Of a DNA stretch of 64,000 nt, positions 11,596 to 22,072 are shown piece by piece; the stretch's first letter is position 1; every line of letters starts with the position of its first letter. The stretch lies in contig CAWCXJ010000006.1 in the NCBI GenBank assembly GCA_963799485.1, forward strand, positions 192,001 to 256,000, in the 5' to 3' direction. Source of the DNA: an uncultured Trueperaceae bacterium (GTDB taxonomy: Bacteria > Deinococcota > Deinococci > Deinococcales > Trueperaceae). The notes beneath the pieces are model-generated. The model was not told the origin of the DNA and made no database searches. It saw nothing but the letters and a program-made list of their open reading frames with translations. The translations under genes and the position numbers were made by a program.

Positions 11596-13956
11596 TCAGT
11601 GACCACCGAAACGCCGCACCGCCAGTTCCGCGACAAACACGCCCAACCCGGCAAGCGCAAACCACATCCATACGGCGCTCCGCTCTCTGGGTAACTCGGG
11701 CGCATACGTCCCCGCATCTTCGATAACCCGACCGCCGGTGCGCGCGGCAATCTCACGCAAGAGCGTCTGCCCCCCGGCGGTATCGAACTCGTTGTCGGGG
11801 GCGCTTACCTGCGTTCGGGCGACTACCGTGTCGCCCCTGGAAACGCTCAAGCTCCCGCCGGCCTGGACGCTCGGCAATTCCCCTTCGTAACGTCCGGGCG
11901 CGACCTGCTCGAGCCCTACCGCTTCACCCCCGTAACGAGCGGTAAGGGTTTCGCCGTTGATAAATTCACCGCCTGCAACCGCGTCGAGGACGACGCGAAG
12001 ATTGTCGCCGCCCGGCGTCGCGGTGACCTCGTAGGTTTCGGGCCGAACCTGCAACCAGCGCGTTATCGTCCCGAGAATGCCGGGGAGCGCGGCCCAACCG
12101 CCGAAATCGCCGGCAAAGGCGTTGAGGTCGGTGGTCAGGGCGGCGCTGCGGCCCAAACCCTGACGGCTGACCGCCAACACGGGTTCGTTGTCTTCGCCCT
12201 CGAAGATAAGGTCGCTGCCGTTTTTTAGGGTCGTGGCGATGTAGGCTCCGACCCGAGGCGGGGTAAGACCCGCCGGGGTCAACGGGTTGGCCTGCACGCG
12301 CACGGGCAGGGGGCCGTTCCGTAAAAGCGAACGGGTCGCGGTCAGCGCCTCGCTGGTAAAGATGCGCGGCAAGGTGCTGACGTCCAGCGCTTCGTAGTAG
12401 CGCCCGCCCCCGGCCCTGGCAATGTCTGCCAGTCTTGCGGTGTCGGCCTCTGCGCCGATAGCGATGCTCGAGGTGGTAATCTTGTCGCGCTGACCCGCGC
12501 GTGCGAGCGCCCTGAAATCGAAGTCGTTGCCGCTAAAGGGGCCGCCCCCGTCCGAGAGGCGTCCGTCGGTCAAGAGGATAATATGTTTAATCGACGCGCG
12601 GCTCTGCCGCAAACTCTCTAGTCCGGCGCGGTAGGCGGGCTCGAGTAGCGTACCGCCGCCCGCCTGCACGTCCAGGATGGCCTGCAACATCTCACGTTTG
12701 CCTTGGGCAGTTGCAGTGCGGAGCTTAAAGACCCATTCGTCGGAGTCGCTAAAGGTTAAAAAACCAAGCTGGTCGCGTTCATACGCGAGGTCGACGACCT
12801 CGATGGCCCCTTCTTTGGCGAGCTCGAGCTTCGTCGGGTTGCCCGTAGACATCGACTGCGAACGGTCCATGATGATGACGAGCGCGACGAGCGGCAGTTC
12901 GACGTTACTCCGCACATCGGTCGCGACCGGCAGGACCGTTTCGACGGGTGTGCGGTACCAGCCGCCGAGCCCGAAACTCGCCGGGCCGCCCGCCATCATC
13001 AGGCCGCCGCCCTCTTCGACGTAGCTCCGCAGCAGCTCGAGCTGCCCGGTCGAAAACGCCGCGGCCCCTTCGCGCAACACGATAGCGCTGTAGGCGAGCG
13101 GCGCGCGGATACGTTCCGGCCCACCCCGGACGACGCGGAACCCTTGGGTCTCCAAAAGGTTGGCCAAGGCCGGGTCGCCCAACACGAGCACGGGTTCGTC
13201 TTGCGTCACGTCGATTTCGGCGCGGGCCGAGTCGTCTTGGAGGGGTTGGCTAAAGGGCAGCTCGAGCGACGCCTCGACGTCGAGCACGCCGCCGTCCGTC
13301 CCGGCTGCCGACACGGTAAAACGCAGCGGCGTTTGGCCCGCCGAGACCTGCCGGGTGATGGGCTCGAGCTCGGCGCCGCCGACCCGGGGGCGCAGCGTCA
13401 GGGTGGTGTCACGGTCGCTTTCGACGACGGCGACGACCTCGGCGCGGGCACCCGGCGCGAGCCGCGCGGGGGCTAGGAGTTCACGCAGCCGCACGTTGCC
13501 GAGGCTGGGGGCGTAGAGGACGTCAACGGGAACCTCGGGAAGTGAGGCGAGCGCGTCACCCTGCGACTCGGCTCCGTCACTGACAAGGAGCAAGCGCCCT
13601 GCGCCCGAAGCGGCGGCGACCTGAAGCGCCCGCCCGATGTCGGTGCGTTCTGGTTCTAGCTGGGGCGTGTTTTCAGGTCGTCCCCCTACTGCAGCTGTGT
13701 CCCCAGCAAACTCAAGGGTCGTTTCGCCGGCGAGAGGTGCAGCCGCGTCCTTGGCGGCGTCGCCGACGCTCTCCGACACATCGACCAGCACGCCCAGCGT
13801 CGCAGTTTTAGCCGGCAGCGAGGGTTGAGCGAGCGCAATAAGTAGCAGCGCAAGTGCAACGAGCCGCAGCAGCCACGGGCCGAACCGGGTACGACCGGGT
13901 AAAAAGGGCAGCAGCAGCAGGCCCAAAAGCACCCACGGCGCAGCGAAGATGTTCAT
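11596..13956 (-). CDS. Membrane-anchored VWA-domain protein with GATase-like domain
   Basis: DVSES and DRSQSM MIDAS motifs, LLTDG, GGGLMMAGGPASFGLGG; terminal TM segments. Confidence 0.85.
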   Translation of the reverse strand: MNIFAAPWVLLGLLLLPFLPGRTRFGPWLLRLVALALLLIALAQPSLPAKTATLGVLVDVSESVGDAAKDAAAPLAGETTLEFAGDTAAVGGRPENTPQLEPERTDIGRALQVAAASGAGRLLLVSDGAESQGDALASLPEVPVDVLYAPSLGNVRLRELLAPARLAPGARAEVVAVVESDRDTTLTLRPRVGGAELEPITRQVSAGQTPLRFTVSAAGTDGGVLDVEASLELPFSQPLQDDSARAEIDVTQDEPVLVLGDPALANLLETQGFRVVRGGPERIRAPLAYSAIVLREGAAAFSTGQLELLRSYVEEGGGLMMAGGPASFGLGGWYRTPVETVLPVATDVRSNVELPLVALVIIMDRSQSMSTGNPTKLELAKEGAIEVVDLAYERDQLGFLTFSDSDEWVFKLRTATAQGKREMLQAILDVQAGGGTLLEPAYRAGLESLRQSRASIKHIILLTDGRLSDGGGPFSGNDFDFRALARAGQRDKITTSSIAIGAEADTARLADIARAGGGRYYEALDVSTLPRIFTSEALTATRSLLRNGPLPVRVQANPLTPAGLTPPRVGAYIATTLKNGSDLIFEGEDNEPVLAVSRQGLGRSAALTTDLNAFAGDFGGWAALPGILGTITRWLQVRPETYEVTATPGGDNLRVVLDAVAGGEFINGETLTARYGGEAVGLEQVAPGRYEGELPSVQAGGSLSVSRGDTVVARTQVSAPDNEFDTAGGQTLLREIAARTGGRVIEDAGTYAPELPRERSAVWMWFALAGLGVFVAELAVRRFGGH

Positions 13957-19378: not shown

Positions 19379-20668
19379 CTAAGGCTGCAACCGGCTCCCG
19401 TCTCTCGGAAACGCCCGCGCAAACCGCACATTGGGAATATTGAGGAGCAGCGCCGTAAGCCGCTCCGCCCCGAGCGCGAACCCGCCGTGCGGCGGCATCC
19501 CGTACTTGAAGACCTCCAAGTAGCCCTTAAACGCCGCCGGGTCCATTTTGCGTTTTTGCAGTTCTTCGACGAGCACCGCGTAAGTGTGGATACGCTGCCC
19601 GCCGGAGCTGATTTCCAGTCCCCGGAAAATCAGGTCGAAACCCAGCGTCAGCCCGTCACCGGTCGGGTAAGTGTAAAAAGGCCGCGCGGCTTGCGGGTAG
19701 TTCGTGACAAAGACAAAATCCGAACCGTGTTCCTCTTTGGCCCAGCGCCCGATCAAGCGTTCGGCTTCGGGGTCTAGGTCTTTGCCGCCGGTTTGGTGCC
19801 CGTAACGCTCTGCCACCAGCTCTCTCGCCTCTAAAAGCGTAATCCGTGGGAACGCGGTCTTTACGTCCGGGGCAGCGGCCTCGAGCAGCGCCAACTCAGG
19901 CGAGCACGTCTCGGCGGCGTGCATCATCATCGTTTTGAGCAGGGTTTCCTCGAGCCCCATCACCTCGTCCACCGACTCGATAAAACCCATTTCAACATCA
20001 AGTGACAAGTATTCGGACAGGTGACGGCTGGTGTGCGACAACTCGGCGCGGTAGACCGGCGCGGTTTCAAACACCCGCTCGTACACGCCGACCATGATCT
20101 GTTTGTAAAGCTGCGGCGACTGCGCCAGATACGCGCGTTTGCCGTAATAATCGACTTCAAACAGGGCCGCGCCGCCCTCGGCACCCGCCGCCACGAGTTT
20201 AGGCGTAAAGATTTCGGTAAAGTCTTGGGCAATCAGGGTATCCCGGAATGAACGCACCAGTTCGGCCTGCACTTTGAGTGCGGCCCTGGCTTTAGGACTC
20301 CGCAGCGAGACGTGACGGTATTCCAGCAAGGTATCCGGGTTGACGTTCCACTCCTCTTTCGGGATTTCAATCGGCGCCGGTTCGGTCGCTTCGGCAATCA
20401 CTTCCAGCTTTTCGGCCTGAAGCTCCAACCCACCCGGTGCTTTTTTACTCTCGACGACCCGGCCCGACACGCGCACCGACGATTCGGCTAGCGGCAGGTC
20501 AACTTTGCCGAAAACGCACTGCACTACCCCCGTGCGGTCGCGCAGGAGCAGAAAACGGATGCCGCCTAAGTCGCGGCGCGAATGTACCCAGCCTTGCAAG
20601 CCGACGTGTTCGCCCAAGTGCTTAGGCAAGTTGGCAACGAGGGTGCGCGGTTCAGCGGTAATGCTCAC
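19379..20668 (-). CDS. aspS: Non-discriminating (archaeal-type) aspartyl-tRNA(Asp/Asn) synthetase, AspRS2
   Basis: GWVHSRRDLGGI, KAPGG, YLAQSPQLYKQ, EISSGGQRIH, YGMPPHGGF; AAGGGAG SD before GTG 20668. Confidence 0.92.
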   Translation of the reverse strand: MSITAEPRTLVANLPKHLGEHVGLQGWVHSRRDLGGIRFLLLRDRTGVVQCVFGKVDLPLAESSVRVSGRVVESKKAPGGLELQAEKLEVIAEATEPAPIEIPKEEWNVNPDTLLEYRHVSLRSPKARAALKVQAELVRSFRDTLIAQDFTEIFTPKLVAAGAEGGAALFEVDYYGKRAYLAQSPQLYKQIMVGVYERVFETAPVYRAELSHTSRHLSEYLSLDVEMGFIESVDEVMGLEETLLKTMMMHAAETCSPELALLEAAAPDVKTAFPRITLLEARELVAERYGHQTGGKDLDPEAERLIGRWAKEEHGSDFVFVTNYPQAARPFYTYPTGDGLTLGFDLIFRGLEISSGGQRIHTYAVLVEELQKRKMDPAAFKGYLEVFKYGMPPHGGFALGAERLTALLLNIPNVRFARAFPRDGSRLQP

Positions 20669-20684
20669 AAAAACTCCCTTAAGC

Positions 20685-20710
20685 AAAAAACCTCGAGGCT
20701 TGCTCGAGGT
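20685..20710 (-). terminator. Attenuator terminator in the aspS leader
   Basis: CCTCGAG-caagc-CTCGAGG-TTTTTT, 16 nt upstream of the aspS GTG. Confidence 0.8.
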
Positions 20711-20731
20711 CACAGGCTCACTTTTATGCGC

Positions 20732-20779
20732 CTACGCCCCGTACCACCAATTATCGTCGTCAAAGCGTCGGGGATTCAT
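20732..20779 (-). CDS. Putative aspS leader peptide MNPRRFDDDNWWYGA
   Basis: Extended -10 TGcTACAGT 7 nt before the ATG; GAC GAC GAT AAT run; antiterminator/terminator follow. Confidence 0.7.
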   Translation of the reverse strand: MNPRRFDDDNWWYGA

Positions 20780-20795
20780 AGGCTGAACTGTAGCA
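20775..20795. repeat. 21-bp direct repeat, copy 1
   Basis: TTCATAGGCTGAACTGTAGCA, identical at 25606-25626. Confidence 0.9.
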
Positions 20796-21033
20796 TTCAC
20801 GCCCACGCTAGGCAACTGCACCTTGATGTTTGCTGAACATACAGGTCGTTGCGGGCAGCCCGGACAAGCGGTACTCGAGCTTTATTTTACGGCGAATTTG
20901 GCATAGACGAGTTGGTTTTTTTGCGCCGTTGCGGCGCACCCTCCGGTACGGATGGACGCTTTTCAACCGCTCGCACATTTTTGACTACACCCAGCGAAAC
21001 TCGTCCCGGTTGTTGTCGTGGCTACGACGTAAA

Positions 21034-22017
21034 CTACGGTGCAAAAGTCGGCGTGCGCTCCGCACTTTCCGCAGCAGCTTCTTGAAGCCGTTCCACGTCG
21101 CGCCGTGGCGGTAGGCCGAAGTGCCTTTTGTACTCTCGACTAAAGTGCGAGGCGTCCTCGTAACCTACGCGGAAGGCGGCGCTCGCTGCGTCCAACTGCT
21201 CACCGAGCATCAGCCGCCGGGCTTCTTGCAGCCGCAGCCGCTTCTGGAACTGCAAGGGACTCATCGCGGTCACGGCCTTGAAGGTGTGGTGAAACCCCGA
21301 CACGCTCATATTGAGGTCTTGCGCGATGCTCTCTACCCGTAGCGGCTGGTCGAAGTCTTTACGGAGCCGCTCGATGGCCTTGGTAACGCGGTGTGTTTGG
21401 CCTCCCAAGCCAGCAATGTGACCGAGCCTACCGCCCTGCGCGCCCAGCAGCAGCCGGTAGACGATTTCGCGCATAACGAGTGGGGCGAGAAAAGCGGCGT
21501 CTTTGGGAGCGTCTACAAGCCTGACGAGCCGCAGCAAGGCGTCCAGCAGACCGGCGTCCAGCGCGCTGACGCCGATGGCCCGCAGGTCGGCCCGGGTTTT
21601 CGGTGCCAGGTAGTCGGCCTCGAGCATCACTGAACCGACGAGGGTGGGCTCGAGCTTCAGGCGCAAGCTGAGGTAGGGCTTTTCTTTCGACGCAGCCAGA
21701 ACGTGCGTTACCGTAGGCAGCTCACCTGTGACCAGCAGGTAATGGGCGGGGTCGTACTGATAGCGCTCGCCCCCGAGAAGAACTTCTTTGCTGCCCTGGG
21801 CAATCACGCAAAAAGCAGGCTCGGACACGCTGTGAAGCGGCTCTTTAGGCGAGGAGAGGCGGTGGAGGTAGAGACCTCTCAGCGGTTCAGCGCTCCCGTC
21901 TTCACGAACGACCCCGGCGACGCGCTCGACCAGCTCACCGATGCTGTCCTGCACCCTGGGCAATTCGCGGTTTGGCTGCCGAAAACTTACCGAGTTTATA
22001 GGAGCTCCATCAGACAT
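21034..22017 (-). CDS. AraC-family regulator (YqhC-like)
   Basis: EPAFCVIAQGSK, REIVYRLL, MSPLQFQKRLRLQEARRLM, VGYEDASHFSREYKR. Confidence 0.9.
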   Translation of the reverse strand: MSDGAPINSVSFRQPNRELPRVQDSIGELVERVAGVVREDGSAEPLRGLYLHRLSSPKEPLHSVSEPAFCVIAQGSKEVLLGGERYQYDPAHYLLVTGELPTVTHVLAASKEKPYLSLRLKLEPTLVGSVMLEADYLAPKTRADLRAIGVSALDAGLLDALLRLVRLVDAPKDAAFLAPLVMREIVYRLLLGAQGGRLGHIAGLGGQTHRVTKAIERLRKDFDQPLRVESIAQDLNMSVSGFHHTFKAVTAMSPLQFQKRLRLQEARRLMLGEQLDAASAAFRVGYEDASHFSREYKRHFGLPPRRDVERLQEAAAESAERTPTFAP

Positions 22018-22041
22018 TTCCCGCCGCCTTTTTGAAATTGC

Positions 22042-22072
22042 AGAATCGTTCAATTATCCTCGAGAATCATTC
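22042..22072 (+). promoter_or_regulatory. Putative AraC-family operator (direct repeat)
   Basis: AGAATCGTTC and AGAATCATTC at 21-bp spacing between the divergent AraC and AKR genes. Confidence 0.5.

Follow-up and report, generated by a model that had tools for sequence, protein, structure and literature searches.

In the classical attenuators of enteric bacteria, trpL, hisL, pheL, thrL, leuL and the pheM leader of pheST, an upstream open reading frame (uORF) with tandem codons for the regulated amino acid is combined with alternative hairpins, and the position of the translating ribosome decides between them. Here we describe the leader of aspS2, the gene of a non-discriminating aspartyl-tRNA synthetase (AspRS2), in a 64-kb stretch of Trueperaceae DNA (the window, all of whose leader coordinates are on the minus strand), and we conclude from comparative sequence evidence that it is very probably a ribosome-mediated, or leader-peptide, transcription attenuator of aspS2. 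Within the phylum of this bacterium it is usual for leader peptides to be leaderless: de Groot et al. (2014, Genome Biol Evol 6:932, PMC4007540) proposed 14 putative leader peptides for transcription attenuation, each with its transcription start site (TSS) on the A of the ATG, except for one that starts at -1. Their Table S9 assigns the putative leader peptide Deide_10019, MFAALANNNDNDPH, to the D. deserti gene of the non-discriminating AspRS, with its TSS placed at the A of its ATG by differential RNA sequencing (dRNA-seq; PMC4007540). The element had already been predicted for one Deinococcus species in 2014, and two statements of the original prediction for the window, that no Asp/Asn attenuator of aspS had been described and that a leaderless one would be doubly unusual, have to be corrected. 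An experimental study of aspS2 attenuation was not found in the literature searched, with subscription journals outside its coverage, and de Groot et al. (2014) was the only relevant paper there.

Anatomy, conservation and covariation of the aspS2 leader

The leader unites a uORF with its own start signal, tandem cognate codons, an intrinsic terminator and a mutually exclusive antiterminator (Table 1). Its uORF, ATG AAT CCC CGA CGC TTT GAC GAC GAT AAT TGG TGG TAC GGG GCG TAG, contains a run of three Asp codons and one Asn codon, DDDN, followed by the antiterminator 2:3 hairpin CGGGGCGUAGGCGCAU-AAAA-GUGAGCCUGUGACCUCG (20741-20705; -17.3 kcal/mol folded alone) and by the terminator core CCUCGAG-CAAGC-CUCGAGG-U6 (20709-20685, with U6 at 20690-20685); the terminator, extended by the scan to 9 pairs at 20711-20689, gives -12.7 kcal/mol when folded alone. 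This anatomy, from the extended -10 and its 7-nt spacer to the Shine-Dalgarno (SD) sequence and the GTG of aspS2, had been given correctly in the original prediction at every coordinate, base for base. The 141-nt leader stretch folds better than its shuffles (z = -2.25, with 3 of 200 shuffles equally stable); the case that the leader is more than chance rests mainly on its relatives.

We searched 61 genomes, the window's own and 60 relatives of five families (f1-f5) of one order, and found an AspRS2 orthologue in 59 of them. The pattern sought upstream was an ATG uORF, 7-45 codons long, whose last 14 codons include a run of two or more Asp/Asn (D/N) codons and whose stop codon lies between -5 and 45 nt ahead of a hairpin with a folding energy of -9 kcal/mol or lower, this hairpin being followed by at least four T in eight positions. 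In a first sample of 50 orthologue upstream regions (30 loci and 20 fetched additionally), this pattern was present in 40 (f1 23/30, f2 6/6, f3 4/4, f4 3/6, f5 4/4; L043, one of the f4 matches, depends on a doubtful hairpin) and in none of the 50 reverse complements of the same regions used as the control, with a D/N run of at least three codons in 31 of the 50. A second sample of named records, which shares species with the first, comprised 80 loci, 73 of them with at least 150 nt upstream, and gave the pattern in 57 of the 73, including L083, which looks false, against 0/73 reverse complements. Because the relatives are not independent samples, the counts speak for a wide occurrence and do not amount to a probability. 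The peptides vary between families and are D/N-rich in all of them (Table 1), and while their sequence drifts, the uORFs keep their frame, start and stop; among 78 distinct leaders the stop codon is TAG 64 times and TAA 14 times.

Both helices covary in an alignment of 23 Trueperaceae leaders. At the base of the antiterminator, 7 bp of CUCGGGG with CCCCGAG, 93.7% of the cells are paired and both sides have changed in 5 of the 7 pairs, and in the terminator, of 9 bp, 94.7% of the cells are paired and both sides have changed in 7 of the 9 pairs; none of 500 shuffles reached as high a pairing for either helix, and sliding the partners of the terminator lowers its pairing to at most 60%. Segments 2, 3 and 4, namely the antiterminator 5' arm, the arm shared by both helices and the terminator 3' arm, are altered jointly in several leaders, such as L021 (UUGGGG/CCCCAAGG/CCUUGGGG), L029 and L032, which is the prediction for two alternative helices with one common arm. 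Moreover, segment 2 always lies within the last uORF codons, with the stop codon adjoining. The conserved D/N uORF and the covarying alternative hairpins that the original prediction proposed to look for in relatives are thus both found, and its reading of the leader as an Asp/Asn leader-peptide attenuator is supported by these two results together with the stop beside the antiterminator arm and a dependence on tRNA-bound Asn synthesis, to which the gene content of the genome points.

The product of aspS2 matches NCBIfam NF003483, aspartate--tRNA(Asn) ligase, with 559 bits vs a cut-off of 353, in agreement with the non-discriminating AspRS named from the start. Its orthologues align from residue 1-8, those of Truepera sp. 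loci are 93-94% identical to the window's, and most other loci are from Trueperaceae, so that by this AspRS2 comparison the window comes from a Truepera-like member of Deinococcales. Searches of gene content in the window's own genome, which is 99.99% complete, found an asparaginyl-tRNA synthetase (AsnRS; NF003037, 552 bits), a bacterial-type AspRS beside AspRS2, and GatB (514 bits). For asparagine synthetase B (AsnB) there was no match above the cut-off in the genome, only matches of the amidotransferase domain, and for AsnA no match in the genome. D. radiodurans and T. thermophilus, which have this gene set too, reportedly make asparagine only via AspRS2 and GatCAB. AspRS2 is the first enzyme of the only visible asparagine route; since GatB and AsnRS are present and AsnA and AsnB were not found, aspS2 is in effect an asparagine-biosynthesis gene, as much a biosynthetic as a synthetase gene. 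A covariance model of the leader matches only the aspS2 leader in this genome, with 66 bits; a second match of 23 bits sits within a ddl-like coding region and one of 20 bits is an ordinary terminator, and both were rejected.

Table 1. Features of the aspS2 locus in the window, and leader peptides of the five families
Feature	Positions	Strand	Basis and remarks
-35-like hexamer TTGCCT	20815-20810	-	sequence; 17 nt spacing to TACAGT
Candidate promoter P1, TG-extended -10 TGcTACAGT	20795-20787	-	sequence; 7-nt spacer 20786-20780 to ATG
uORF MNPRRFDDDNWWYGA and TAG, leaderless-type, 15 codons	20779-20732	-	ATG at 20779
Tentative segment 1 ACGCUUUGAC	20768-20759	-	pairs with segment 2 in the minimum free energy (MFE) structure of the ribosome-free leader
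Control codons GAC GAC GAT AAT (D7 D8 D9 N10)	20761-20750	-	sequence
-10-like hexamer GATAAT from codons D9-N10	20755-20750	-	sequence; 7 nt before first base of segment 2
Segment 2, antiterminator 5' arm CGGGGCGUAGGCGCAU	20741-20726	-	overlaps last uORF codons and stop
Antiterminator 3' arm GUGAGCCUGUGACCUCG	20721-20705	-	includes segment 3, the 5' arm of the terminator, as its last 5-7 bases
Intrinsic terminator GACCUCGAG-CAAGC-CUCGAGGUU and U6	20711-20685	-	terminator scan: 9 pairs, 5 G-C
SD AAGGGAG of aspS2	20680-20674	-	sequence; 5 nt before GTG 20668
aspS2, archaeal-type non-discriminating AspRS, 429 aa	19379-20668	-	GTG start; profile match NF003483
f1 Trueperaceae peptide			consensus ..[RTV]DDNSxxRxLGA, then stop
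f2 peptide			MFAAHNNVNDDPC, then stop
f3 peptide			MRGLLNNDR, then stop
f4 peptide			MLRADDNL, then stop
f5 peptide			MKHIFNNRTDDDF, then stop

Transcript start, proposed mechanism and folding around the ribosome

The uORF ATG comes 7 or 8 nt after a TANNNT motif in 53 of the 78 distinct leaders, 43 of which also have the TG of an extended -10, and an SD-like tetramer precedes the ATG in only 5 of the 78. The candidate promoter P1 of the window is absent from the list of the promoter scan, with 8 of 12 matching positions at a scan threshold of 9; in the relatives' upstream sequences TTGACA is found at a spacing equal to that of the -35-like hexamer. Because of this promoter spacing and of the D. 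deserti TSS, the window transcript probably begins at or beside the A of the ATG at 20779.

From here we infer the transcript start, the translation of the uORF, the stalling and the response, and propose that a 70S ribosome would load without SD on the 5' end of a transcript starting at or beside the A of the ATG. With ample Asp-tRNA(Asp) and Asn-tRNA(Asn), this ribosome would reach the UAG and cover segment 2 (CGGGGCG...), so that segment 3 would pair with segment 4 into the terminator and the RNA polymerase would stop at the U6 before aspS2. With charged tRNA(Asp) or tRNA(Asn) scarce, the ribosome would stall on GAC-GAC-GAU-AAU, 8-17 nt upstream of segment 2, leaving this segment free to pair with the newly made segment 3, whereby no terminator would form and aspS2 would be transcribed. 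Such a switch would provide a feedback control on the supply of Asn and of Asp-tRNA.

The full leader of the window, folded with a ribosome mask from A-15 to A+12, behaves in this manner when the A site is on D7, D8 or D9, where the MFE structure is the long 2:3 hairpin and no terminator is present, and when the A site is on the stop codon or the RNA is ribosome-free, where the terminator forms; in the ribosome-free RNA, nt 12-21 pair with segment 2. For the comparison between leaders we used 39 of them, which are the 40 pattern matches minus L043, and a second model in which the RNA ends before segment 4, as at the moment of decision, with the boundary at A+10. Here the terminator arm becomes sequestered in 31/39 leaders when the ribosome stalls on one or more codons of the D/N run and is free in 33/39 when the ribosome has reached the stop, and the sequestering positions make up 84 of 119 within the D/N run vs 71 of 196 after it.

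Several results have to be weighed against a ribosome-operated switch. When the lone Asn codon N10 occupies the A site and the footprint is +12, the terminator forms in the window leader, given that the stall then clips the first two bases of the antiterminator arm, whereas at a boundary of +10 the Asn-codon stall also frees this arm; the expectation of the original prediction that a stall on D-D-D(-N) would free the antiterminator is therefore sustained at +12 by the three Asp codons, and by the Asn codon only at +10. Its proposal to fold the leader with ribosome constraints has likewise a divided outcome: the window leader switches, but the full-length equilibrium MFE structures of the 39 leaders do not, with the terminator at almost every ribosome position, only 10 of 119 D/N-run codons breaking it at A+10, and the terminator in the ribosome-free full-length RNA of 38 of the 39. 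Since equilibrium folding shows no switch, the switch must be kinetic and beyond what folding shows, and in classical attenuators equilibrium likewise fails to explain the switching. In the model that ends before segment 4, stalls before the run sequester the arm too (251/320), and the ribosome-free RNA has the arm already sequestered in 23/39 leaders and free in 16/39; these models thus do not establish that segment 1 is conserved or that the default state is "off". From the counts within, before and after it, the D/N run thus marks the last positions where a stalled ribosome still permits read-through. Furthermore, 5 of the 6 Deinococcus-like leaders (f2) show no sequestration at any ribosome position, and the full pattern was not found in 10 of the 50 orthologue regions of the first sample. 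Four of these ten are without leader (L017, L018, L026, L030), three have a uORF without D/N run (L024, L031, L044), and two (L038, L053) have G+C-rich hairpins without T-tract, with the uORFs MGPLIGNNAG and MRLPQGNDA. In L007 the pattern was missed in a region that ends at the contig end, with D-D-N, L-G-A-stop and the terminator visible.

Some of these relatives differ in arrangement. In L026 and L030, both of Trueperaceae, aspS2 comes directly after another gene and no leader is present, and there the attenuator seems to be lost or bypassed. In the f4 loci L038, L043 and L053, from genomes of 2.1-2.2 Mb, a short uORF is followed by alternative hairpins of G-runs and C-runs, the last of which reaches the SD and has no T-tract, and control may be translational there, or may work via a U-less terminator. 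In the f5 locus L047 (320-661), two further elements separate the N/D leader and its terminator from aspS2, first a 20-codon ORF that has a good SD (GGAGG) and then another hairpin with T-tract, and the whole could make up a two-stage leader. No such leader was seen at three AspRS2 loci of Anaerolineales (48% identity).

Overlap with GATAAT and rival explanations

The codons of the D/N run are also biased at the DNA level. Asn is encoded by AAT in 57 of 60 leader-run codons vs 21% in the aspS2 coding sequences (CDS) of the same 56 loci, and GAT is enriched to 39% vs 18% in the aspS2 CDS. Among 63 distinct Trueperaceae leaders, the last two codons of the run are GATAAT in 35 and GACAAT in 17, 61 runs end in T, vs 9 of 61 D/N dicodons in the aspS2 CDS, and 39 leaders match TATAAT at 5/6 positions, so that the -10-like hexamer shows strong conservation as nucleotides. 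Such U-ending codons could also reflect a DNA-level signal, which is a further point against reading the run through the ribosome. Rare codons are known in attenuators, such as CUA in the leu leader. The AspRS2 gene of D. deserti has two TSSs enriched by terminator exonuclease (TEX) treatment, at -133 (the leader ATG, 1191 reads) and at -93 (348 reads), and the -10 motif assigned by the authors to the -93 TSS is GATAAT within the N-D-N-D codons of the leader (PMC4007540).

These data would also fit a core that is a DNA signal, in which GATAAT or GACAAT, as a hexamer of the -10 kind, would serve a second promoter (P2) or sigma-dependent pausing, with the D-N codons as a by-product and with something other than a stalled ribosome choosing between terminator and antiterminator. 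We consider this improbable, because the D/N runs exceed the length of the hexamer and differ between families, for example AAC AAC AAC GTG AAT GAT GAT, AAC AAT .. GAC GAC GAT, or AAT AAC GAC, always share their reading frame with an ATG 7-8 nt past the P1 -10 and with a stop beside segment 2, and usually have a third D/E/N codon before the hexamer; the codon and DNA roles are, besides, compatible with each other.

We put forward tentatively, as a possibility less likely than not, that the Asp-Asn codons are dual-coded, serving both as hungry codons and as a sigma-A -10-like element for a bypass promoter or a sigma-dependent pause. An RNA of the window started from GATAAT would be without uORF and would fold the antiterminator. 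In the case of a bypass, this second-promoter RNA would begin at the antiterminator arm and escape attenuation, providing basal AspRS2; in the case of a pause, the RNA polymerase would wait for the ribosome loaded on the 5' AUG, in the place of a trp-type pause hairpin. Either way, this would be a leaderless attenuator with a timing or bypass device inside its own control codons. The hexamer may be a bypass promoter, a synchronizing sigma-dependent pause, or just rare wobble codons that sharpen the response, three readings that are inseparable by sequence.

Less probable still is a factor acting in trans on the leader RNA, either uncharged tRNA as in a T-box or AspRS2 itself in an autoregulation of the thrS type, with the uORF incidental. 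Aminoacyl-tRNA synthetase (aaRS) genes are often under T-box or autogenous control, and UGGUGGUAC in the window resembles the T-box core; this string, made by the W-W-Y codons (20742-20750), was seen in just 2 of the 23 leaders of the alignment and is taken as a coincidence. No T-box or other relevant Rfam family was matched at E up to 1 over 20300-21400, the leader of about 100 nt is too short for a T-box of typical size, and conservation falls on the frame, start and stop of the uORF while its sequence drifts. Finally, a chance small ORF beside the ordinary terminator of the upstream neighbour, an AraC-family regulator gene (21034-22053), is close to negligible: G+C-rich intergenic DNA often holds short ORFs and hairpins, and the terminator scan expects 1.6 chance matches in the stretch, but that gene ends at 21034, 255 nt short of the uORF, the leader has its own promoter-like site, and the comparative data (40/50 vs 0/50, plus covariation) contradict chance.

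Between the AraC-like gene and the leader promoter there is also a perfect hairpin, GCGCCG-CAA-CGGCGC, followed by A7 (20921-20945, minus strand), with no T-tract after it on either strand and thus no canonical terminator. A CRISPR-DR56 match of Rfam at 20345-20381 (minus strand), inside the aspS2 CDS, has 25.4 bits vs a gathering score of 35 and was taken as chance. A scan of the whole window for units of -10, ATG, short ORF and terminator gave two candidates besides the aspS2 leader, of which one, 48134-48024 (minus strand), was rejected as lying inside a 307-aa ORF, and the other, 12077-12220 (plus strand), has a 28-codon ORF rich in Ala, Pro and Lys.

Comparison with known attenuators

An attenuator of aspS2 would tie a mischarging tRNA synthetase to amino-acid sensing, and in bacteria whose only asparagine synthesis takes place on tRNA, control of the enzyme that opens the route appears to follow the pattern of a classical biosynthetic operon. 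The codons of both products of the enzyme would be read, from an RNA starting at AUG. Conserved in five families of Deinococcales and supported by covariation, the leader would be a good model for the timing of attenuation without an SD-led start.

Among the enteric attenuators, pheM of pheST applies a like logic to a tRNA synthetase gene. In contrast to these enteric leaders, the uORF of the window has no SD and probably begins with the RNA itself, both Asp and Asn would be read, the gene is that of a mischarging synthetase that feeds tRNA-bound Asn synthesis, and neither a conserved segment 1 nor a pause hairpin is established for the aspS2 leaders. The T-box riboswitches of aaRS genes (Rfam RF00230) likewise choose between terminator and antiterminator by tRNA charging; they differ in binding the tRNA directly, whereas a translating ribosome is the proposed sensor here, and no T-box match was found at this locus. 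The leaderless polycysteine short ORFs of mycobacteria, reported to act as cysteine-responsive attenuators (bioRxiv 10.1101/834739), are likewise leaderless, rich in one amino acid and in control of downstream genes, in another phylum and for another amino acid.

The closest system remains Deide_10019 of D. deserti, an N/D-rich mini-ORF directly upstream of the orthologous 429-aa AspRS2, and the peptides of our f2 loci (MFAAHNNVNDDPC, MSAAQANLNNDPH) are near-identical to it. The kinds of regulation known to exist are left unchanged by this element. The passages and tables consulted of de Groot et al. (2014; PMC4007540) give the peptide and its TSS, and contain no structure model, conservation analysis or functional test. 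Unlike Deide_10019, the window peptide is a Trueperaceae-type one (..DDDNWWYGA; family consensus ..DDNSxxRxLGA), and its last codons hold the antiterminator arm.

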